The position numbers and the translations under genes were made by a program. Of a stretch of 64,000 bases of DNA, positions 8,253 to 46,643 are shown in pieces. Source of the stretch: a virus; IMG/VR virus record IMGVR_UViG_3300009165_000006, one strand, 5' to 3'. Within the stretch, counting starts at the first letter, position 1, and each line of letters begins with the position of its first letter. The notes under the pieces are model-generated. The model had not been told where the DNA came from. It was given only the letters and a program-made list of their open reading frames with translations, and searched no databases.

Positions 8253-8287
8253 TTGAGTTTTGAGTAGGCTTACGCGTAATACTGGGC
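8253..8287 (+). promoter_or_regulatory. conserved promoter-like element TTGAG-N15-CGCGTAATA-N6-ATG
   Basis: Only plus-strand instance of the recurring motif; directly precedes ATG 8288. Confidence 0.5.
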
Positions 8288-14104: not shown

Positions 14105-15250
14105 ATGAAACCTACAGTAGCAGTTATCTCCTTAGTTCTCCAAGCCACAGCCCTAACAGCCTATGCACATCCGGCTTGTCACGGACAGTTACAGGGGGCC
14201 ATCAACACTCCGGCAGATGATTCCGTACATTGCCCGACGGTATGTGATCCGACTGGATGCCAATGTGATCCCACTCAGCTCTCCCCCTATAGCCTCGAGT
14301 GGTGGTACTGGACGGGCCACCTGAAGACACTGAGTGGTCGCAAGTTTGGGTTCTCGAACATCGTCTACACGGGGATCGACCTCGTCACCTACCTTCCACT
14401 CACATGGTCGGACAGTACGGTGGCCGACCTTCGTAACGGCACGTTCAACTATGGTGGACGAGAAGCTATTCTCGGGTTGCCGACGAAGGTCCCCAACGGA
14501 TTCGAGTTCACTTTCCCTCACTCGCAGGTCTTTGGGGGTAATGGAACTGATGCGATCCACTCAGTGATCGTCGACCAAACCTCGGGCAAGCGGTACGAAG
14601 TGGATCTGGCGATTCACTCGGTGAAAAAGCCGGTTCAACAGCGTGCCGATGGACTCGTTTACTACTATTCCCGCGAGCAAATGCTTGCAGTCGGAGCCAT
14701 CGTTATCGATGGGATACCCCAGATCGTAACGGGAACCGTCTGGTTCGACCATCAGTTTGGGGATCAACGAGACGCTTACCAGAATGTCACCACGTGGCAG
14801 TGGTTCGGGATCCAACTCTCGGGCAACCGGCAGCTCGTCCTCTACGACGTCCAGGTGAACGAGAACGAGACTCGCCCCGAGTACGCCTCCGGAGTCATCG
14901 AAGGGACCTTCACGGATCCCAACTGCGGAGTCACTCACCTGACCCGGAACGACTTCACCATCACGCCCCTTGGTAGCTGGCAGTCGGCTTGGATGCCCCC
15001 AGGCTGGGGTGACTTCCAGTGCATCTACCCGATGGGGTGGAGCATCCAAGTCCCCAGCAAGGGGATTGACATCACCGTGGATCCCTACTTCGATGCCCAG
15101 GAGATCATCGCCCCCTTGCCGGCTCCTGAAGGCACATTGACCGTTGGTGACCGGTATTGGGAAGGGGATGCCGCGGTGACGGGTAGCGATACCGGTGAGG
15201 CCTTCGTGGAACTCACCGGCTTCTGCCCATTTGCCCCAGGATCTAACTAG
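14105..15250 (+). CDS. secreted protein with N-terminal signal peptide; possible CrtC/AttH-like lipocalin-fold hydrolase
   Basis: MKPTVAVISLVLQATALTAYA signal. LEWWYWTGHL resembles the EWWY motif of CrtC/AttH family. GGAAGGA SD upstream. Local GC is higher than the surroundings. Confidence 0.45.
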   Translation: MKPTVAVISLVLQATALTAYAHPACHGQLQGAINTPADDSVHCPTVCDPTGCQCDPTQLSPYSLEWWYWTGHLKTLSGRKFGFSNIVYTGIDLVTYLPLTWSDSTVADLRNGTFNYGGREAILGLPTKVPNGFEFTFPHSQVFGGNGTDAIHSVIVDQTSGKRYEVDLAIHSVKKPVQQRADGLVYYYSREQMLAVGAIVIDGIPQIVTGTVWFDHQFGDQRDAYQNVTTWQWFGIQLSGNRQLVLYDVQVNENETRPEYASGVIEGTFTDPNCGVTHLTRNDFTITPLGSWQSAWMPPGWGDFQCIYPMGWSIQVPSKGIDITVDPYFDAQEIIAPLPAPEGTLTVGDRYWEGDAAVTGSDTGEAFVELTGFCPFAPGSN

Positions 15251-15255
15251 TTTGG

Positions 15256-15519
15256 TCAGGTCACGGTACCTGCAATTTCTTTCTTGGCTACAGCTTGCAG
15301 GTACCGTATGACCAACCAATCGTCGACAACGTCCCCTGCTCTTAAGTATTGGGGGGCATCGGGTGGCACGTACTTAGTAAGTTCATCCTTGAAATTTTCA
15401 AGTTCCTCGGGTGTGAGGCCTTGTTTGGTTAGGTCAAAATCATTGTACCCATGAAGACAGAATTCACTAGCTGCATCATTCAGGATAGTCACTAAAACTT
15501 TCAATTGAGCACGATTCAT
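15256..15519 (-). CDS. hypothetical protein (87 aa)
   Basis: ORF track. Confidence 0.3.
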   Translation of the reverse strand: MNRAQLKVLVTILNDAASEFCLHGYNDFDLTKQGLTPEELENFKDELTKYVPPDAPQYLRAGDVVDDWLVIRYLQAVAKKEIAGTVT

Positions 15520-15705
15520 TCCCCGGTGTACACCAGTTCATGCACTTTTGTGGAGACCTATTTCACGATCTGCCGTTTTATTTGGTGACGGCGTTGCCGT
15601 TCTTAGGTACTCTCGTCGCCTGGTGTCGATCCATGGTCAAAAGGCTTCGTGTGGATAGAAGACGATGACTGAGGCTCTTAGGCGAGGCAGAGGTTAAGCT
15701 CACGG

Positions 15706-16167
15706 TCAGCTCTTCATGAAATTCGCTGGGCTATCTTTCCGGACTCGATGCTTGATCTCGTCCCGCACCTTGCATCCCTCGGCTGACTTCGTAGGCTCAA
15801 GTGGGGTAGCAGGGGCTCCACAGTTCTTGCACTTGCCGCCCTTCACATAGAGCGGGTTGTGACAGTAGTGGCACTTCGGCCTTCTCTTCGGCGTGTGCTT
15901 CATAACTACCACCGGACATCCTCCGGGAGCCTCCCATAGGCCAGCTCACAGGCTTCCTCGTACTTCGTAGCCCGCTCAACCTCACCTTCGAGCCGGAGGC
16001 TCATGGCACACGACTTGTTGATGGCGTAGCAAGCTAGCGTCTCCATGATCCGGCGAGCGCCCTTCCGCTTCCCAGTGACAACGACGGCTTCCTTCTGGGT
16101 GGCGATGTGCCACCCAGAAGTCTCGGAGTTCTTCCCGGCTCATTGCGTCGAAGTTTGGGATTTCCAT
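15706..16167 (-). pseudogene. degenerate, frame-disrupted paralog of the 17357-17811 zinc-ribbon gene module
   Basis: Three consecutive ORFs in three frames (16167-15982, 15985-15797, 15912-15706) are collinear with the intact copy. It has the same N-terminus (MEIPNFDAMSREELRDFW) and the same C-terminal CHYCHNPLY...CKNCGAPATP zinc ribbon. Confidence 0.5.
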
Positions 16168-16201
16168 GCCTTCTATTACGCACCACCAGCAGAGAATTCA
16201 A
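16168..16201 (-). promoter_or_regulatory. promoter-like element TTGAA-N14-TGCGTAATA-N6-ATG (minus strand)
   Basis: Plus strand reads cat-gccttc-tattacgca-N14-ttcaa. Confidence 0.5.
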
Positions 16202-16598
16202 CTGAATCTTTGCTACCCACCTCTCCCCATGGTATCATCTGGCTATGGATACTCGACGAAAAGACCACATCCAAAGAGGAGGTCGTGTATTCCTTCCCCT
16301 TTGGCGTATGAGACAGATTAAGTTCGAAGAGGCTGTACTCAATTCGATAGCCAAGCGCGAGGGATTGACTGGTAGTCTTCATCACATGGATTGCCGGTGC
16401 GGCTCTATCTACTGCAAGGCGACGCCCTACCTCTCCACGACTAAAGACGCTCGACCCGAAGGATGCACTGAGGAGCCCAAGATGCGGAGCGGTTTCCAGC
16501 CCGGTCGACCTAAGTACTAGGAGTCAAGAGAACGACAAGCGAGTGTTCAATACTGAGGACAAGCAAGTAATCCCCCTCCATCTTTTGTGCTCTGATCT

Positions 16599-17345
16599 AT
16601 GCCTCAGCTAACAATTGAACAGCAAATCCGATATGAGCGTCACGTTAGGCTGCCTGAAGTCAAGGAAGCTGGGCAGATCAAACTGCTTCAGAGCAAGGTC
16701 CTGCTCATAGGGGCGGGCGGGTTAGGATCCCCAGTAGCGCTCTACTTAGCCGCCGCAGGGGTCGGTACCTTGGGGGTCGTGGACTTTGATTCGGTTAGCC
16801 TCTCGAACCTCCAGAGGCAGATCATCCACTCCACCGTCGGAAAACTCAAGGTCCCAAGTGTCACAGAGGCGGTGACCCGGTTGACCCCTGACGTATCCAC
16901 CGTTGAGTATGTCGGTCGCGTGGATGCCTCGACCATAGATCAGATCTTCGAGATTGGTTGGCACGTGGTCATTGACGCCGTGGATAACCTGGAAACTCGG
17001 TACCTCATCAACGAAGCTTGCGTAAAACGTAAGCTCCCATGGATCCACGGGGCCGTTTTCTCGTATGAGGGTCAAGTGACAACCTTCACCCGGGGCGGCC
17101 CCTGCTATCGATGCCTCTATCCAGATGTGCCCCCCAAAGGGGCTGACAAGCCCGGTGGCGTCCTTGGAGTTGTCCCAGGCGTGATAGGTACTATCCAAGC
17201 AACAGAGGCGCTCAAGGTCATCCTGGGGCTCGGACAGACGTTGGAAGGGACGATGCTCAACTACAACGCTCTCTACATGTCCTTCGACCGAATGCCGCTT
17301 GGAGCTCGCAACCCAAACTGCTCAGTTTGCTCGATGACTTACTGA
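16599..17345 (+). CDS. ThiF/MoeB-family E1-like adenylyltransferase
   Basis: LLIGAGGLGSPVALYLAAAGVG (GxGxxG), DFDSVSLSNLQRQ, and C-terminal CYRC...CSVC zinc motif. About 248 aa, MoeB-like size. Confidence 0.85.
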   Translation: MPQLTIEQQIRYERHVRLPEVKEAGQIKLLQSKVLLIGAGGLGSPVALYLAAAGVGTLGVVDFDSVSLSNLQRQIIHSTVGKLKVPSVTEAVTRLTPDVSTVEYVGRVDASTIDQIFEIGWHVVIDAVDNLETRYLINEACVKRKLPWIHGAVFSYEGQVTTFTRGGPCYRCLYPDVPPKGADKPGGVLGVVPGVIGTIQATEALKVILGLGQTLEGTMLNYNALYMSFDRMPLGARNPNCSVCSMTY

Positions 17346-17356
17346 GCATAGGTTCA

Positions 17357-17811
17357 TCACTTGAAAAACATGGCTGGTGTGTCCCGACGAAGAGGGTGCT
17401 TGATTTCGTCCTGCACCTTGGGATCTTCAGTGGGCTTCAGCGGGTCAAGTGGAGTAGCGGGGGCACCACAGTTCGTGCACTTGCCATCGCTCAAGTAAAG
17501 CGGACGGTGGCAGTAGTAGCACTTGGGGCGGCCCGTAAGATTACCTACCACCGGACGTCCTCCGGGAGCTTCTCGTACTGGATCTCGCAAGCCTGCTCAT
17601 AGGTCAGGGCAGGTTCAATCTGGCCTTCGAGACGAAGGCCGATAGTACACGATTTGTTGATGGCGTAGCAGGCTAGACTCTCCATGACCTTGCGAGCGTC
17701 TTTCCGGTCACCAAGGAAGAGGCCGGCCTCTTCCTTGGTGGTAACGTGCCACTTCGACCAAAAAGCTCGAAGCTCGTCTTGAGTCATGGCCTCGAGGTTT
17801 GTGAGTTCCAT
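17357..17811 (-). CDS. zinc-ribbon protein, apparently split by a frame change (17811-17545 N-terminal domain; 17590-17357 CYYCHRPLY...CTNCGAPATP ribbon)
   Basis: The two ORFs overlap by 46 nt in different frames. A paralogous module lies at 15706-16167. Promoter-like motif upstream. Confidence 0.5.
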
Positions 17812-17845
17812 ACGTTCTATTACGCACGATTGGGGTGAAACTCAA
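17812..17845 (-). promoter_or_regulatory. promoter-like element TTGAG-N14-TGCGTAATA-N6-ATG (minus strand)
   Basis: Plus strand reads cat-acgttc-tattacgca-N14-ctcaa. Confidence 0.5.
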
Positions 17846-17887
17846 CAAGCAATTGTCTGATTCCTAGGATTGGTGTAGGGTTGAAGC

Positions 17888-18202
17888 ATGGAATGTATTG
17901 ACCAGTCAACTTTGAACTCTGAACCAGATCTCGGAACTATCGCGCAGTTGAATCACGAGGGGGATACGACGTACACGTGGGACAAAACGAATGAAAACGA
18001 GTGCCGGGCCGCCGAGGCACACTTCAACCTGTTGAAGTCGAAAGGATTTCTCACCTTTAAGGTGAAACGTAGTAGACGTAAAAGTCCGGAAGAAGCATTT
18101 GATCCGAAAGCAGGCAAGTACGTCTACGTGGCCCCCGAAATAGCGACCACCCTTGACCCCAAGGCGGACTACGTAGTGACACCACAGATGCGAGGCGGGT
18201 GA
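17888..18202 (+). CDS. hypothetical protein (104 aa)
   Basis: ORF track. Confidence 0.3.
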   Translation: MECIDQSTLNSEPDLGTIAQLNHEGDTTYTWDKTNENECRAAEAHFNLLKSKGFLTFKVKRSRRKSPEEAFDPKAGKYVYVAPEIATTLDPKADYVVTPQMRGG

Positions 18203-18554
18203 TGGGTAGTAGAACTACCCAGTGGATTCCTGAATCAGAACTTAGCCTTAGCAGGAGATAACTTGTGCATCTCCTCGTAGGCGTTCTTGATCCAGGTGAG
18301 ATCCCCATTTATGAGTTAGAAGGGGCAGAGCATAGCTATCAGTGGGATGGGGCCTCCAATTTTGCCAATGGAGGAATCTGGGACATCAGGCCCTTAACAG
18401 TCAACCATAGAGTCATAATCAGCTTAGGGCTTGATGAACCACTGACCGTTCTCGTTGCCCAACTTTCAGATCGCCTTCAAGCGTTACCTCAACCACTGGA
18501 TGGTTCCTTGATTCTGTCTATCAGGTCCGTCTATTCTGTTGATGGGGTTACTAA

Positions 18555-19220
18555 TTGGGAATCAGGTCCAGATCAGCATGGGATCTGGATCGTGGGGGTT
18601 TGGCCTTTGTAGAACGAGCCTACACGGGCATAGATCTCGATGGGCAAGATCCAAGCTATTTGATTGAGCAGACGTGCTTGCTTATCGCCGGCAAGGATTA
18701 CGATAGAAACATACCTAGACTTGAAGCTTGGAGGGTTCGTCTCGAAGAAGAAAGGCGCGAGAGGAAAGCCAAGCGTGATAGTGTTGAAGCAAAAGCTCGA
18801 GCTATCCTAATGGCCCATCTCGATGAAACCCAAGTGTCTGAGTTCGAATCCTCTGGATCCTTCCACGTCCTTGGTGCCGATGGTTACACCTATCTCATCA
18901 CCTCCAGGGAACAACACAATGTGTTTCGAATCGAGGAGGGACGTCGAACCTTCGAGTACTGCATCGTGACAAGGGATTTCGTACCCCTTCAGGATCAGAT
19001 GCTGACTCAAATGCTTCTCTTGACGACCCATCCTGCGATGTTTCATCAAATCGCGAACACCTGGGAAATTAGAGAAGATGGGACCCGCATCCGCATAGCA
19101 GGGCGACTAGTTGACGTTCTTGAGAACCCAGCCGCCCAAGTCGGCTGGGTTCTCAAATCTCCTTACCGGCAAGTATCTCTCTGTACATCGGGCCTAGCAC
19201 TTTTGAGACACTCCCCTTGA
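18555..19220 (+). CDS. hypothetical protein (221 aa; start uncertain)
   Basis: ORF track; overlaps ORF 18265-18612. Confidence 0.3.
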   Translation: MGIRSRSAWDLDRGGLAFVERAYTGIDLDGQDPSYLIEQTCLLIAGKDYDRNIPRLEAWRVRLEEERRERKAKRDSVEAKARAILMAHLDETQVSEFESSGSFHVLGADGYTYLITSREQHNVFRIEEGRRTFEYCIVTRDFVPLQDQMLTQMLLLTTHPAMFHQIANTWEIREDGTRIRIAGRLVDVLENPAAQVGWVLKSPYRQVSLCTSGLALLRHSP

Positions 19221-20094
19221 TGCTCTGCTCGGTAGCCCCGAGTTCGGTCATCTCCCGTTGGCAATCCTTGGCCAGGTCTGCGCAAACCGTGGTCAAGATC
19301 AATGGCATGTCCTTCATGGTATGGGTTAATTCAACCCCTCGGTCGTTAAGGCGTCCGACGGCGTTGATGACTCGCCCCTTCGTGACGTACTTGACGATGA
19401 AGTCATCAATCGGAGAAGGACCCCTTGGAGTTTTCTCTTTGGCGGCGGATGCAACTTCAGCGAACTTGGCGCATTTATGCTTACAGATTAGCCAGTTTCC
19501 AAACACGTTTCGGAGAAGAGGATTCGATCGGATGACCACCCCCTCAGCGATGTTGTCATCCCCAAAACCATTGATCTTCCCAACCGTGCTGGGTTTTTCT
19601 AAGAGCGCATCGAAGTTTGCCTGAGTCGGCTCCCCTCGCCACACCTCGGGTATTACAGGTAGCTCCATCTTGGAGCAAAGCTCGATGAACAGGTCGTAGG
19701 TGACAAAGTTCTTGGCCACCATGATGTCGAAGGCTCTGAAAAGAGGCTCCTGACCACTTGAGTATTGAACTCCCTTGGTTTTGATGCCGGGACCGTGAGC
19801 TTCACCAAAAACGGTGACTTCAGAGAACCCGTAGGACTTGATGACCTCCATCATCCTTGTTAGAAGGTCCTTCTGGGCTTTGAACTTGTTAAGCATGCTC
19901 CCGAGCGGGAAGTTCTGCCCAAGTTGATATTCGACGTCACGTGAACCATAACCAATCTCTTCGATGCTTTTCATCCCGAGTGGGAAAAAGAGACGAAAAT
20001 TCGAACCGTGGATTTTCTCGAGGGCAACTACTTCCCTGACAGAAAAGATCTCTGGGCAGTCGGAGAGTTGAACGATTGAAGGGTACTTTTCCAT
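19153..20094 (-). CDS. Rnl2-family RNA ligase (ATP-dependent nucleotidyltransferase)
   Basis: Motif I EKIHGSN (lysine adenylylation site, cf. KIHGTN of T4 Rnl2), motif III VTVFGEAHG, motif IV AEGVVIRS, motif V WLICKHKCAKF. 313 aa. Confidence 0.75.
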   Translation of the reverse strand: MEKYPSIVQLSDCPEIFSVREVVALEKIHGSNFRLFFPLGMKSIEEIGYGSRDVEYQLGQNFPLGSMLNKFKAQKDLLTRMMEVIKSYGFSEVTVFGEAHGPGIKTKGVQYSSGQEPLFRAFDIMVAKNFVTYDLFIELCSKMELPVIPEVWRGEPTQANFDALLEKPSTVGKINGFGDDNIAEGVVIRSNPLLRNVFGNWLICKHKCAKFAEVASAAKEKTPRGPSPIDDFIVKYVTKGRVINAVGRLNDRGVELTHTMKDMPLILTTVCADLAKDCQREMTELGATEQSIKGSVSKVLGPMYREILAGKEI

Positions 20095-20193
20095 TGGATC
20101 CTGTATAAATCCACGGATAGGTACTCCAATCCCTTGGCCAAGTCAACATAATGTTGACTTTCTTGATATACCCTGACACCTTGGACTACTACT

Positions 20194-20529
20194 ATGTCAA
20201 AAGACGAATGTCCGGCTGAGGATAGACTGATAATAGGTCCAGATCTTGGGGATGGGTCGCATTCGTGCGTGAGGCATACTCCAGATCACAAGATCCACGT
20301 GGGTAGAGTCCAACCTTTGAGAGATGGGCAATCGATCATTGGGGACCAAGAGATTCTGATGGTGAAGTACGATTCCCAGCAAGGAGACTTTTTGGTACGA
20401 ACTGTATACAATCCTCGTCATCAAGGAGAAGAGTCCAACACCTCGAAGGGCCCAGCCAAGGTCACCAGCGACGCTTATCGAGCCGGCTACGACCGTATCT
20501 TCGGCAAGACTTCGATCGGAACAGCTTGA
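20194..20529 (+). CDS. hypothetical protein (111 aa)
   Basis: ORF track. Confidence 0.3.
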   Translation: MSKDECPAEDRLIIGPDLGDGSHSCVRHTPDHKIHVGRVQPLRDGQSIIGDQEILMVKYDSQQGDFLVRTVYNPRHQGEESNTSKGPAKVTSDAYRAGYDRIFGKTSIGTA

Positions 20530-20595
20530 TGAGCTGGTTCGGTGTAATCACCGATAGTGTCTCAGGAGTTCAAAAACCCCAATGGGTTTGATCGG

Positions 20596-20640
20596 TTTGA
20601 TCAACTTTGACTAGCTTTGGAGTCAACTGCTACTACCCTG
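20596..20640. repeat. copy of a ~45-nt element shared with the region upstream of tnpB (46707-46748)
   Basis: GATCAACTTTGACTAGCTTTGGAGTCAACTGCT versus GATCAACTTTGATCAGGTTTGGAGTCAACTGCT (3 mismatches in 33 nt), with similar flanks. Confidence 0.6.
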
Positions 20641-20665
20641 ATCGATACAAGCGAGAACCCATGAT

Positions 20666-20869
20666 ATGACTTTCTCCGAAGCCCTTGTTCACCTCAAAGC
20701 TGGTCGACAGATTAAGCGCAAGGGGAGTGTTGTTTGGCTGCATATCGACAAGTACGGGCACATCCGGGAATTGGACTTTGCCTTTGGATTTCCAGACTCC
20801 ACACTCTGGGTACCAACCGAAGAGGACATCTTAGCCGAGGACTGGGAAATGCGCGAAGTTACCAGCTAA
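20666..20869 (+). CDS. hypothetical protein (67 aa)
   Basis: ORF track. Confidence 0.3.
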   Translation: MTFSEALVHLKAGRQIKRKGSVVWLHIDKYGHIRELDFAFGFPDSTLWVPTEEDILAEDWEMREVTS

Positions 20870-20931
20870 ATAGCTCATTGACACATAGTACTTAAATTAA
20901 CACTACCCTCAATTTACACAAAAGGTATCGT

Positions 20932-21561
20932 ATGTTCTTCTGGTTCGGATTGGCCCCTTGGATCTGGGGGTTTGAATTTGTACTGTTTGTAGGGCTTATT
21001 GTGCTAGTCGAATTCGAGTTCTACAAGTGGTCCACCGCAACCCTCATAGGAGCTCTCGTACTGAGTCACTTCCTGCATGCGTTCTCAGTAGTGGATCTAG
21101 TAAGGCATAACCCTGGAACCTCCTTTATCGTAGTCCTGAGCTATTTCCCTGCGGGCACCATATGGGCAACCTTCAAGTGGTTCTTGTTCCTCTATCGGTT
21201 CAAGGACGCCAGGATGGATGCCTTGGATGAGTTCCATGATATTCAGGAAGCGGCTCGAGCTCGAATCGCTTCGGGTGCTGTCTACACAATGGATGAGGAG
21301 TTGGTCAATAAGACGGATTACCAGTATTTGCGTAGCCAATACTTCAAGAAGACCAACCTTTCGAAGATCCCACGTGTCCGTGACTACAAGAGGAAGGTTA
21401 TCGGTTGGATTGCGTTCTGCGTGTTTTCGATAGTTGGCACTATCTTCCACGACCTGGTTCGTAGGATCGCACTCTGGATCTACAATCGAGTCAGCAGTTT
21501 CCTTCAGTGGATGTCAAATCGGATTATCTCCGAGGTGGAAGAAATACCTGAAAAGACCTAG
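20932..21561 (+). CDS. integral membrane protein (209 aa)
   Basis: Several hydrophobic helices (FFWFGLAPWIWGFEFVLFVGLIVLV; IGWIAFCVFSIVGTIF). Confidence 0.45.
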   Translation: MFFWFGLAPWIWGFEFVLFVGLIVLVEFEFYKWSTATLIGALVLSHFLHAFSVVDLVRHNPGTSFIVVLSYFPAGTIWATFKWFLFLYRFKDARMDALDEFHDIQEAARARIASGAVYTMDEELVNKTDYQYLRSQYFKKTNLSKIPRVRDYKRKVIGWIAFCVFSIVGTIFHDLVRRIALWIYNRVSSFLQWMSNRIISEVEEIPEKT

Positions 21562-22451
21562 TGAACCAAGGTTCGCTCGAAGGCCTCGTTGTTGAGCACA
21601 ATCATGATGGAGGGTGGATCCGGAGCGTTCGCTTGACGAGTTGACTCATCGTACTCGTGGCAACCCCACTCACCCTTCTCCATGTAAGGTTGAACTCTTA
21701 CCCATGTTCCGATACTTGGATCAATGGCTGCAGCAGCCGCTATTGTGTCGTGAAGGGCCTTCCCCTCTGGGCGCTTTTTGAAGTAAAAAGCCATCCCTTC
21801 CTTGATGAGGTCAAGCCCAGCATGGGCTCCGGAAGGGATTCTCTCATTGACCATAGGACCCCAGAAGACACCGTGACAAACGTTCTTGGAAACCATCCGT
21901 CGAGTCCAGATAGGTGAGTTTTTACCCAGTAAACCGAGGGCTGCTTTCGAGTCGCCCCCAAGGTTGAAGGTCGGACAGGTGAGCTTGCCGGCGAACTTGG
22001 GTAGCCGGTGTTCGGGTGGGACGATGTTGTCTCCGGCGAAGCCACCCTGGCAAGTCCACGTACGGAAAAACGGCCACACCTCACTGCTAGCCTTCCAGAT
22101 GTTGGTGAGGGCCGCTCCAGTGATTAGGTGGGTGGTTGGAAAGTCCAGTAGTACCTGCTTAATGACCTCAGTGGCGCTTCCCTGGGGCTGACAGGGGGAG
22201 ATCTTCCCAAGCCAATCATAGTGGAACTGGGACACCTTAGAAGTTTGCTTCTTGAGGCTCCCAATTCCGATAGGCACGTCCGTCCGCCCAAGACGATCGA
22301 GGACATGACGAACTATCCCGACCTGGTCGAAACCTCCTGGATGGATCGTAGCCCCAACGAGTTTGGCTCGGGGATGAGTAGCAAGGAGCGCTAGAGTGAA
22401 CACGTCATCTGGGTCACTCGTTTCCATGTCGAACAGATATTCTTGAGTCAC
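21558..22451 (-). CDS. nucleoside hydrolase-like protein (IU-NH/RihA fold candidate)
   Basis: N-terminal DMETSDPDDVFTLALL resembles the DxDxxxDD aspartate cluster of nucleoside hydrolases. GTG start. Divergent from the ADP-ribosylglycohydrolase gene. Confidence 0.4.
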   Translation of the reverse strand: MTQEYLFDMETSDPDDVFTLALLATHPRAKLVGATIHPGGFDQVGIVRHVLDRLGRTDVPIGIGSLKKQTSKVSQFHYDWLGKISPCQPQGSATEVIKQVLLDFPTTHLITGAALTNIWKASSEVWPFFRTWTCQGGFAGDNIVPPEHRLPKFAGKLTCPTFNLGGDSKAALGLLGKNSPIWTRRMVSKNVCHGVFWGPMVNERIPSGAHAGLDLIKEGMAFYFKKRPEGKALHDTIAAAAAIDPSIGTWVRVQPYMEKGEWGCHEYDESTRQANAPDPPSIMIVLNNEAFERTLVH

Positions 22452-22514
22452 TTGAAATCAATCTCAGGTTATAGGAGTGGCTGCCACCTAAATTTCGATG
22501 GTGTATCAGCTACC

Positions 22515-23456
22515 ATGCCCTCTTCGTTGAGTAAAGCCCAAGCTTGTCTGCTGTGTCATGTGGTCGGAGACTCCCTTGGGAGCCTCGTAGAGTTCGAGTC
22601 CGAGGAGACCATCCTTCAGGAGCACCAAGGAGAAAAAGTGCGCTACCTCGCTGATGGGGGCACCTGGGAGACCTTGGCGGGGCAAGGCACAGACGATTCC
22701 GAAATGGCCATCACCCTAGCTAGGACTCTCATTCACCATGGTTTTTACAGCTCAACCATTATGCGGAGTATGTATTGCTATTGGCTCAATAGCCAACCAT
22801 TTGACGTTGGCAGGACCACTCAAAATGGACTCCTGGATATGCCTGACTTCCACAGCCAAGCCAATGGGGCTTTGATGCGTGTCGCCCCCTTGGGGATCTT
22901 TGGAGCGAAGAAGAAGGACTGGAGAAAGACCATGATCTGGGCGATGGAGGATGCCCTTATTACGCACCCAAATCAAATATGCTTACAAATCAATGCACTT
23001 TATGTATCGATGATCGATCAAGCAATCGGAAGTGATGCAAGCCCAGATCAACTCTACGGTGCGCTGGCCGCAACAGCAGTGGATATGGAAGCCCATCCAG
23101 TTATCCTCGAAGCTATCGACCGAGCTAGAACTGCCCCACCGGAAAACTACATGGTGAATATGGGTTGGGTTGTCCTCGCTTTCCAGAATGCGCTCTATCA
23201 ACTACTACACGCCCCGTCATTGACTGAAGGAATTGTCGATACCGTCAATCGCGGAGGTGATACCGATACCAACGGAGCAATTGCCGGTGCTCTGCTTGGG
23301 GCTGTTTACGGGATGGAGCAAGTCCCCAAGGATTGGATCGATGGAGTAACCCAATGTTGCCCATCGGTGACCAACCCCTACTCTAGAAAGCCACGTACAG
23401 GCTTCTTTTGGACTAATGATGTGCTAGAAGTAGCCAAAAAACTACTTGATAGTTGA
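22515..23456 (+). CDS. ADP-ribosylglycohydrolase (DraG/ARH family)
   Basis: GDSLG, GQGTDDSEM, GALMRVAPLG and GGDTDTNGAIAGALLGA motifs. In-frame ATG within track ORF 22443-23456. Confidence 0.8.
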   Translation: MPSSLSKAQACLLCHVVGDSLGSLVEFESEETILQEHQGEKVRYLADGGTWETLAGQGTDDSEMAITLARTLIHHGFYSSTIMRSMYCYWLNSQPFDVGRTTQNGLLDMPDFHSQANGALMRVAPLGIFGAKKKDWRKTMIWAMEDALITHPNQICLQINALYVSMIDQAIGSDASPDQLYGALAATAVDMEAHPVILEAIDRARTAPPENYMVNMGWVVLAFQNALYQLLHAPSLTEGIVDTVNRGGDTDTNGAIAGALLGAVYGMEQVPKDWIDGVTQCCPSVTNPYSRKPRTGFFWTNDVLEVAKKLLDS

Positions 23457-45398: not shown

Positions 45399-46643
45399 TC
45401 ATAGGAGAACTCCGATGTTCACTTCCTGCTTCAACGAGACATGACTCGTAGGCCGAAGGGTTCTCCTTCGTTCCGCCGCTAGAGGACTCTCCACAGGCTT
45501 TTTAGCGCCGAAGGCGCCTAGGTTCCTCGGGAACTCCGAGTACCTTTCCAAATTCTTCGCCGCATTCTCATCTCGATCATGAATAGCTCCACATCCTTCA
45601 CAAACCCACTCTCTCACAGAAAGAGCCAGCTGCGGCCGTTTAAGGCCGCAGCTGGTACATATCTTCGAGGATGGGAACCATCGATCAGCTACTTCTAGCT
45701 TAGATCCATACCAAGTGGTCTTGTAGGAAAGTAGCCTCTTACTTTCAAACCACCCTTGGTCCAAGATCGACCGAGAAAGGTGAGGATTCTTACTCATTCC
45801 ACGAATACCAAGGTCTTCCACAACGATGGCTGACTTGGTTTTCGCCAGCCCCGTTGTGAACTTATGAAGGAAATCCCTTCGAACGTTTGCTACTCGTGAG
45901 TGAATCCTCGCTAATCTTTGAGCTGATTTCCTCCTATTTGACGAACCCTTACGCTTCCTCGAATGAGAGCGTTGAGCCCTTCTTAACCGACTTAACGCTT
46001 GTTTCAATGGATTCGGGGCATGTATCTTCGTACAGGCCCCGTCCGAAGAGACCGTAGCGAAAGTAAGAATCCCTAGATCTACCCCAGCTTTTGGTCCTTG
46101 GATAGGAATAGGATCCGTCACGACCTCAACGGTATTGACGGATACGAACCATCGATCTGCTACCCTCGAAATCGTAGCTGAAAGGATCTCCCCACTAATC
46201 CTGCCGTTGATCTTCTCTTTGGTTCGAATAGTCCCAAGCCTAGGGAGCTTAATATACCTAGTTTGTGGCTCAATTGAACCATAGAGACGGAAGGAATCCT
46301 TTGATTTATGCTTCTTTTTGAACTTTGGGAAGCCAACTCCTTCTGATCTTCTGGACCAGAAAGCTTTGAAAGCTTTGTCAAGATCACGAAGAGCTTCCTG
46401 AGGGGCACACTTGGAAACCTCGTACATCCAAGGGAAGTCAGGGCCCTTGCGGGCGTTGAGGTCCCGATGTTCAGCGATGGCGTTGGTGAACTTCTCCTTA
46501 CCTTCTTGGGTTCGGAAGCGTTCGATCCTCCTTTGGAGGGACCAATTCCAAGCGAAGCGAGCCGTTCCGGCATGCTTCGCCAAGAACGTCCGAACCCGAT
46601 TGTTCGGATCTAACTCGAACTTATACGCCTTCCGAAGTTCCAT
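45399..46643 (-). CDS. tnpB: TnpB (IS605 OrfB-family RNA-guided RuvC nuclease)
   Basis: N-terminal MELRKAYKFELDPNNRVRTFLAKHAGTARFAWN (OrfB HTH), RuvC-I KAGVDLGI, RuvC-II AIVVEDLGIRGM, zinc finger CTSCG...CEGCG, RuvC-III IHDRDENAAKNL. 414 aa. Confidence 0.9.
   Translation of the reverse strand: MELRKAYKFELDPNNRVRTFLAKHAGTARFAWNWSLQRRIERFRTQEGKEKFTNAIAEHRDLNARKGPDFPWMYEVSKCAPQEALRDLDKAFKAFWSRRSEGVGFPKFKKKHKSKDSFRLYGSIEPQTRYIKLPRLGTIRTKEKINGRISGEILSATISRVADRWFVSVNTVEVVTDPIPIQGPKAGVDLGILTFATVSSDGACTKIHAPNPLKQALSRLRRAQRSHSRKRKGSSNRRKSAQRLARIHSRVANVRRDFLHKFTTGLAKTKSAIVVEDLGIRGMSKNPHLSRSILDQGWFESKRLLSYKTTWYGSKLEVADRWFPSSKICTSCGLKRPQLALSVREWVCEGCGAIHDRDENAAKNLERYSEFPRNLGAFGAKKPVESPLAAERRRTLRPTSHVSLKQEVNIGVLL

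Follow-up and report, generated by a model that had tools for sequence, protein, structure and literature searches.

A ThiF/MoeB-type enzyme and a candidate Gly-Gly-terminated substrate in an accessory region of a huge phage

The viral record IMGVR_UViG_3300009165_000006 carries a gene for an E1-like adenylyltransferase of the ThiF/MoeB family that is flanked by two direct repeats containing small zinc-ribbon genes, an arrangement that raises the question of which protein the enzyme acts on. We analysed a 64,000-nucleotide stretch of this record (the window), an accessory region in a huge-phage genome. The initial annotation, made from the letters alone, had read each repeat as one frame-disrupted zinc-ribbon module and had noted that pairs of an E1-like enzyme and a small partner protein are typical of ubiquitin-like conjugation and sulfur-transfer systems, some of them active in phage–host conflict. 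Neighbourhoods were compared across relatives of the window lineage (loci L001–L031), which include a 512-kb viral contig (L001) and three close relatives (L005, L006 and L007) with ~92% identity to the window overall; among GenBank phages there is no DNA-level match to the window. The explanation that we favour, and to which we give an even chance, is a phage module for activation of a ubiquitin-like (Ubl) protein or sulfur carrier, composed of ThiF, a 104-residue protein with a Gly-Gly end (GG104), a cysteine-containing partner protein and possibly the small product of orf91. Coordinates are collected in Table 1.

The enzyme itself is as first described: an intact gene encoding 248 residues, with the GxGxxG and SNLQRQ motifs and both CxxC pairs in place. 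Residues 12–243 match Pfam PF00899 with an E-value of 2e-72 (243.5 bits, against a cutoff of 28.1). The closest structure match is Escherichia coli MoeB (1jw9, 4e-49), with which the GAGGLG and SNLQRQ motifs align, and the zinc-site pairs CYRC and CSVC align with CYRC and CEVC of MoeB. The best NCBIfam models are likewise those for MoeB, followed by UbaA, which activates small archaeal modifier proteins (SAMPs; 7e-82). The initial annotation had named clustering with ordinary MoeB of molybdopterin synthesis as an outcome that would count against its reading; MoeB is indeed the nearest match, but every NCBIfam score lies below its curated cutoff (319 against 449 for NF006444, 246 against 266 for NF004281, 188 against 377 for TIGR02355 and 275 against 450 for UbaA), and we therefore rejected assignment as a MoeB or ThiF equivalog. 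No ORF in the window has a Pfam match to MoaD, MoaE, MoaA or MoaC, and an Rfam search of positions 14800–19500 found no molybdenum cofactor (Moco) or thiamine pyrophosphate (TPP) riboswitch and no other known RNA.

The phage enzyme has no cysteine at the crossover-loop position (C187 in MoeB, C184 in ThiF): the MoeB residue aligns to a gap, the only cysteines present being the four zinc ligands and C131, and relatives of the phage protein likewise have no cysteine in this loop. Because this residue is missing, adenylation without an E1 thioester is predicted from established knowledge of E1-like enzymes. The PADLOC E1–E2 models match the adenylation domain of the phage protein weakly (3e-17).

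The initial annotation reported no Gly-Gly-terminated carrier adjacent to these genes. The window does contain one: GG104, which ends in PQMRGG-stop and starts 76 nt from the downstream gene A, from which it is transcribed divergently. The Gly-Gly end is kept in all 10 of the close GG104 homologs. A profile search of 1.84 billion representatives with the GG104 family returned 657 proteins at E ≤ 1e-3, and by profile match the family comprises at least 657 protein clusters. Its members are mostly 70–120 residues long. Among the best 150, the exact Gly-Gly end is present in 130 and is followed by 1–3 residues in six more. An AlphaFold2 model of GG104 (predicted local distance difference test score 73.5) has a beta-beta-alpha-beta...beta order with a flexible tail; the model and the fold-search matches are of beta-grasp type, which makes a beta-grasp fold a tentative assignment. 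The ratio of nonsynonymous to synonymous substitution (dN/dS) between the window and L005 is 0.05, which indicates that GG104 is under selection.

The Gly-Gly family has no entry in Pfam, NCBIfam, PADLOC or PHROGs and no sequence match in the PDB; ten members compared with Pfam and NCBIfam gave no match at E ≤ 1, and none of the defence-system models matches the family. By sequence, GG104 does not fall into the ThiS, MoaD, Urm1 or ubiquitin families. Profile alignment with hhalign pairs the family with E. coli MoaD over the last strand and the PPxxGG tail only (20 residues; E 0.006, probability 5.9%), and gives a probability of 0.1% for ubiquitin. The proteins of 50,697 phages contain no match to GG104 or to its partner protein; only a short-type Gly-Gly protein gave matches, to two uncultured-virus records. 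In cellular genomes the family has a single match, on a phage-like contig of a Gemmatimonadaceae metagenome-assembled genome (MAG).

The order of genes in the relatives connects ThiF with the Gly-Gly (GG) gene. In four loci with ThiF proteins 50–58% identical to that of the window (L008, L020, L021 and L022), the GG gene comes immediately after ThiF in the same orientation, with a 4-nt overlap between the two in L020 and L022. The window, L005, L009, L011, L013, L015 and L016 have the two genes 0.6–6 kb apart; altogether the pair is clustered at about 12 loci, whose ThiF identities span 50–100%. What lies between the two genes differs from lineage to lineage: an A/B gene pair in the window lineage and L016, six other genes plus B in L009, and a CRISPR array with a 657-residue Cas12-like gene in L002 and L003. 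These varied inserts mark the ThiF–GG junction as a hot spot for insertion and ThiF–GG as the ancestral unit. The expectation of a small partner for the E1-like enzyme thus finds support, but the partner appears to be GG104, which directly follows ThiF in more distant relatives, rather than the zinc-ribbon cassette.

The same segment has also moved recently. Between the window and L005, positions 16200–18250 (ThiF-B-A-GG104) are 97.5–99.9% identical and ThiF differs at 1 of 747 nt, whereas the flanking genes are ~90–91% identical, with synonymous divergence (dS) of 0.35–0.42. This near-identity within divergent flanks points to a recent block exchange between co-circulating phages. Upstream of ThiF, orf91 is probably co-transcribed with it; a promoter-like site (TTGCTA-17-TATCAT) ends 6 nt before the orf91 ATG. 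Homologs of orf91 (64–83% identity) adjoin the GG gene in L009, L011, L012, L013, L016, L017 and L025, and in most relatives the position of orf91 is right after it. The CRISPR locus of the related huge phages L002 (7700–9250) and L003 (7580–9050 and 9963–11936) sits between B and A/GG104, and consists of an array of 13–20 units of a 37-nt repeat (GCTCCAATCCCCATACACTCAAWGAACCACTGAGGC) and the Cas12-like ORF, which has a C-terminal zinc finger.

A third conserved gene follows GG104. Its product of ~270 residues is encoded after the GG gene in all relatives, among them L005, L008, L009, L014, L017, L020 and L022, and the C-terminal ~105 residues also occur after short GG proteins in L026, L027, L028 and L014. 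This C-terminal domain carries the invariant pattern G..Y..C-x7-9-P-x2-D, in which the cysteine is followed by P..D and then by a helix-like LLL stretch. The gene is intact in L005, L008, L009, L020 and L022, and the 282-residue L005 version lacks 33 nt near the site at which the window copy is interrupted. In the window, loss of 1 nt near 18593 splits the gene in two, and four independent assemblies share this lesion. At the level of sequence the partner has no support as an E2: Pfam, PDB profile searches and hhalign (0.2% for UBE2D2) show no similarity. Three of the loci with the C-terminal domain have short GG members (73–90 residues) ahead of the Cys-domain gene and no ThiF in the vicinity: L026, the Gemmatimonadaceae MAG contig; L027 (LR756511, 595 kb); and L028 (Virus Rctr197k), in which the short GG-family protein ends in PG instead of GG. 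Neither the GG family nor its partner is described in the literature searched, coverage of which was incomplete. Their absence from Pfam, NCBIfam, PHROGs and PADLOC makes both invisible to standard annotation of huge phages.

Taken as one module, these proteins would act in sequence. ThiF would bind ATP and adenylate the terminal glycine of GG104, as its family membership, the Gly-Gly terminus and the conserved operon structure suggest; that GG104 is the adenylated protein we consider likely. Lacking the crossover-loop cysteine, ThiF would not be expected to hold the Ubl protein as an E1 thioester. The activated C-terminus could then be passed to the invariant cysteine of the partner for attachment to target proteins, an outcome that we slightly favour, or GG104 could be converted to a thiocarboxylate by way of a host persulfide. 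The A/B cassettes are independent small-gene pairs on the opposite strand, each with a probable promoter of its own, the downstream pair occupying the insertion spot between ThiF and GG104.

Several observations weigh against such a module. A Pfam scan of 92 other ORFs in the window found no JAB, E2, MoaE, ThiG, PP-loop or rhodanese protein; of the Ubl-pathway components that the initial annotation proposed to look for, the window offers GG104 as a candidate Ubl protein and no JAB. Comparisons of the partner with Pfam, with PDB sequences and by hhalign reveal no similarity to E2 enzymes or to any other protein, and its frameshift in the window lineage means that the module may be partly defunct there. 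The GG gene and its partner occur with no nearby ThiF in L014, L017 and L026–L028, and L010 has a 77% identical ThiF with no GG gene within 8 kb. A and B are, moreover, conserved neighbours of GG104 in many relatives, and the A/B cassette may be functionally linked with it.

Comparison with known systems places the phage genes near several of them. Like MoeB–MoaD and ThiF–ThiS of E. coli (PDB 1jw9 and 1zud), the phage has a ~250-residue single-domain adenylyltransferase that combines a Rossmann ATP site with a Cys4 zinc site, and an adjacent gene encodes a small Gly-Gly partner whose PPxxGG tail resembles that of MoaD. It differs from them in that the GG protein has no detectable ThiS or MoaD membership, MoaE and ThiG are absent, the E1 scores below equivalog cutoffs and the genes are phage-borne, alongside a Cys-protein. 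Archaeal SAMP–UbaA, Thermus TtuB–TtuC and eukaryotic Urm1–Uba4, whose small proteins are both sulfur carriers and E2-independent modifiers, also lack a canonical E2 or E3 and combine a MoeB-like E1 with a GG-terminal beta-grasp protein (in the phage, a predicted one). The active site of UbaA has a conserved cysteine. The phage ThiF lacks this residue and scores below the UbaA cutoff, and neither a rhodanese domain, as in Uba4, nor a JAMM protease is present.

Bacterial ubiquitin-like conjugation has recently been recognised as an anti-phage weapon in Bil and in Cap2 of cyclic-oligonucleotide-based anti-phage signalling systems (CBASS). Bil, CBASS Cap2/Cap3 and 6A-MBL share with the phage genes an E1-like protein and a Ubl protein (in the phage, a candidate one) in the setting of phage–host conflict. 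The host-encoded E1s of those systems have catalytic cysteines, an identifiable E2 as fusion or partner and an accompanying JAB deubiquitinase, none of which was found here, and the present module is encoded by the phage. If the module is real, it would be a mirror image of Bil and Cap2, with both parties using Ubl chemistry. Virus-encoded ThiF genes are already known (PMC10134843; 10.1101/2021.07.29.454249; PMC13444090), as in the Asgard virus Nidhogg, the Methanoperedens jumbo elements and the virome auxiliary genes thiF and moeB, where a ThiF-family gene is likewise carried on a large mobile element or virus. In those reports host Ubl or ThiS proteins were proposed as substrate; the phage described here has its own GG partner family and a third conserved gene.

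Which chemistry such a module would serve can be weighed from the same data. A pure sulfur relay, possible though doubtful in our estimate, would make ThiF and GG104 a MoeB/MoaD-like pair, with GG104 first adenylated, then thiocarboxylated by a host persulfide donor, and the sulfur destined for a phage-made cofactor, nucleotide, tRNA or DNA modification; the Cys partner would be the acceptor or transferase. The closeness of ThiF to MoeB, without a thioester cysteine, is what such a relay would lead one to expect, as is the family tail ..FDP.A..I..PP..GG, whose last 20 residues resemble ..FFPPVTGG of MoaD in the hhalign comparison above. No E2 or JAB is detectable, and viral thiF and moeB have been listed as sulfur-relay auxiliary genes (PMC10134843). 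The relay is, however, missing its downstream components in the window, which has no MoaE, ThiG/ThiH, TtuA/NcsA-type PP-loop protein, rhodanese or cysteine desulfurase and neither of the two riboswitches, and the partner matches no known sulfurtransferase. The subthreshold MoeB and ThiF equivalog scores point the same way.

A bolder extension is that the GG protein and the invariant-Cys protein form an undescribed phage-borne Ubl conjugation system, a Ubl protein with a non-canonical E2-like carrier that is widespread in huge and other phages; we regard this as unlikely. Were it true, the Ubl protein would be activated by the phage MoeB-type E1 or by a host MoeB hijacked through the MoaD-like tail, and host or phage proteins could be tagged during infection, for example in counter-defence.

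Less probable still is a stand-alone ThiF that boosts or rewires the host MoaD, ThiS or Ubl pool, with GG104 and its partner unrelated to it. There is precedent in jumbo archaeal elements (PMC13444090), and the separate occurrences already described, of ThiF in L010 and of the GG gene and partner in five loci, fit this proposal. It accounts poorly for the gene order: ThiF and GG overlap in L020 and L022 as if translationally coupled, are adjacent in L008 and L021 and stay clustered over the full range of ThiF identities, and the segment from ThiF to GG104 was exchanged in one piece between the lineages of the window and L005.

The repeats on either side of ThiF call for a separate account. Both lie on the minus strand (15706–16183 and 17357–17827), and their direct repetition was correctly recognised at the outset: they are 73–76% identical without gaps and have a mean column identity of 81% in a gapped alignment, far beyond chance. 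What was flagged as a frame-disrupted zinc-ribbon module is two ordinary small-gene pairs, one intact (A and B) and one decaying (A′ and B′). The split of the downstream copy into two ORFs (17545–17811 and 17357–17590) with a 46-nt overlap is real, but the junction is the natural end of gene A, and B is a gene in its own right. Among 5.8 billion proteins searched, 25 are homologs of A, all of 88–90 residues except one 66-residue fragment, and nearly all end in ...(D)VRW, as the window protein does (LPEDVRW-stop). The stop is in the same place or within two residues of it in the full-length homologs, one of which has two extra residues. For B, the Joint Genome Institute (JGI) gene caller independently gives a 64-residue product (P0036) with a GTG start that overlaps the A stop, and we accordingly place B at 17357–17551.

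A and B also occur apart. In L001, A has no B beside it and is followed by a convergent gene; in L010, A ends in the same CCCGGAGGATGTCCGGTGGTAG and B begins 115 nt later with its own ATG and an extra N-terminal helix; in L017, B starts 25 nt after the A stop. B is found with no adjacent A in L003 and L009, and in L002 the two are ~5 kb apart, with the CRISPR locus between them. Full-length B proteins (78–100 residues, with their own ATG and the extra helix) are encoded in L002, L003, L009, L010 and L017, whereas both window copies are N-terminally shortened and joined to the A stop by two different junctions. The comparison indicates that the A/B junction is a gene boundary rather than a frame disruption and that A and B are two independent small genes.

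Few observations favour the original suggestion that the zinc-ribbon cassette is the E1 partner module, with programmed or regulated frame changes, and its probability is very small. B adjoins ThiF convergently in most relatives, and the junction GGAGGAyGTCCGGTGGTAG is common to both copies. This string is nevertheless the coding end of A, present with A alone in L001 and with B 115 nt away in L010, which weakens GGAGGA-N6-GTG as an evolved Shine–Dalgarno sequence and start for B; the GTG may still serve as the B start, as the JGI caller has it. A programmed frameshift was rejected because A occurs by itself in L001, an ATG of its own starts B in L010, L017, L002 and L003, and no slippery heptamer (X XXY YYZ) is present at either junction. 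Nor does B resemble Ubl, E2 or JAB proteins in Pfam, NCBIfam or PADLOC models, and a homolog search with B found just B itself. A fold search with A returned generic helical bundles only. Compared with L005, A has a dN/dS of 0.2 and B has five nonsynonymous and no synonymous changes; within the ThiF-B-A-GG104 block, B alone looks relaxed or diversifying, the numbers being too small to tell which. Gene A contains a 32-nt perfect palindrome at 17709–17740 (halves CACCAAGGAAGAGGCC and GGCCTCTTCCTTGGTG, centre GGCCGGCC) that is present in every copy of the window and L005 lineages and absent from all other A homologs, none of which has a palindrome of more than 8 nt.

The upstream pair shows how the remaining frame changes arose. 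Its layout in three frames is real, but the only true break is in A′. B′ is a separate open frame that has an ATG of its own (15903) 2 nt past the A′ stop, and is 67% identical to B and 73% to B of L002. The A′ frameshift is a 5-nt deletion (TCAAA) at 16113/16114, where the window reads TTCTGGGTGG and L005 and L006 read TTCTGGTCAAAGTGG. The same deletion is present in L029 and in L031/L015, which come from other samples. In L005 and L006, A′ is damaged instead by an ATG-to-AGG change, an in-frame TAG and a 795-bp deletion. The 795-bp deletion corresponds to window positions 15319–16113; B′ is gone entirely, together with the remainder of A′ and the greater part of an 87-residue gene (15256–15519), and the first 21 A′ codons are fused to the tail of that gene, with breakpoints at short TGG repeats. 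Since the 87-residue gene is conserved in L002, L003, L009 and L010, the deletion is the derived state.

These independent lesions indicate that A′ is a decaying paralog in the process of being lost and that no frame change in the cassettes is programmed. Of the three causes first offered for the frame changes, decay holds for A′, whereas a programmed shift and sequencing error do not. That all genes are intact in the real phage and the breaks are sequencing or assembly errors is hardly credible: the partner-gene lesion does lie beside a G5 run, but the A′ lesion is a 5-nt deletion and not a homopolymer slip, contigs from different samples and runs (JGI 3300009146, 3300027675 and 3300027956; SRR5468433 and SRR5468430) show each of the two lesions in identical form, and the window and L005 differ by few other indels that break a frame. 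After repair of the frame, A′ is 82% identical to P0014 but only 61% identical to the neighbouring A; a recent tandem duplication was therefore rejected, and A′ and A are old or separately acquired members of the family. The duplicated, seemingly broken zinc-ribbon genes are the ordinary product of duplication or exchange and subsequent decay.

Upstream of A and of A′ alike lies GTGCGTAATAGAA, the ATG being 6 nt past TGCGTAATA, and the A′ site is nearly identical to that of A in L010. The shared motif that the initial annotation read as a promoter is therefore present, and that reading is plausible, but the motif is not special to the cassettes, as it occurs at nine or more gene starts. Exact TGCGTAATA is found seven times in the window (~0.5 expected) and 17 times with one mismatch (5.1 expected), and nine sites have GTTGAnnT 12 nt upstream and an ATG 6–12 nt downstream. 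The geometry is sigma-70-like (TTGAGT-17 nt-TAATAG, with the start codon 5–6 nt beyond), so that this motif class is plausibly a phage promoter for leaderless or nearly leaderless mRNAs. The pattern GTTGAnnT-N12-yGCGTAATA lies at 8273, 12327, 16182, 17826, 24930, 41706, 43658, 48959 and 55973. GG104 is preceded by a different motif, GGTGTAG, which occurs at 15 sites (5.5 expected), at least seven of them 8–10 nt before ORF starts, and may mark a different temporal class of promoter; its sites include 9260, 9734, 10430, 17872, 33617, 44493 and 49040.

Table 1. Features of the ThiF locus and its neighbourhood (window coordinates).
Feature	Coordinates	Strand	Description
Gene B′, upstream copy, zinc ribbon	15706-15912	-	65-68 residues, open frame
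Gene A′, upstream copy, pseudogene	15906-16167	-	Pieces 15982-16167 and 15906-16046; 5-nt deletion
A′ promoter-like site	16174-16202	-	GTTGAATT-N12-TGCGTAATA-N6-ATG
orf91, small Cys/His-rich protein	16245-16520	+	Homologs adjoin GG104 in relatives
ThiF/MoeB-family E1-like adenylyltransferase	16599-17345	+	248 residues, intact; Pfam PF00899
Gene B, downstream copy	17357-17551	-	64-residue zinc ribbon; GTG start overlapping A stop (GTGGTAG)
Gene A, downstream copy	17545-17811	-	Intact; 88-residue four-helix protein (predicted)
Gene A promoter-like site	17818-17846	-	GTTGAGTT-N12-TGCGTAATA, ATG 6 nt downstream
GGTGTAG motif, second promoter-like class	17872-17878	+	9 nt before GG104 ATG
GG104, candidate Ubl/sulfur-carrier substrate of ThiF	17888-18202	+	104 residues, beta-grasp-like (predicted), Gly-Gly end
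Conserved ~270-282-residue partner gene, split	18265-19220	+	ORFs 18265-18612 and 18555-19220; from alignment to intact homologs
RNA ligase	19153-20094		
Tad2-like protein	about 20666-20869		
Inosine-uridine nucleoside hydrolase	21558-22451		
ADP-ribosylglycohydrolase	22443-23456		

Beyond the partner gene, the segment from 19153 to 23456 looks like a counter-defence or RNA-repair neighbourhood, and a GmrSD_N domain protein is encoded elsewhere in the window. An 850-residue ORF at 30749–33301 matches the shoulder domain of the major vault protein (PF11978, 3e-9), a domain seldom seen in phages. Two genes are of the TnpB/IS605 OrfB type (115–1572 and 45399–46643), the second with full helix-turn-helix, OrfB and TNB domains; L005 carries a TnpB gene together with a serine-resolvase gene at a different place.

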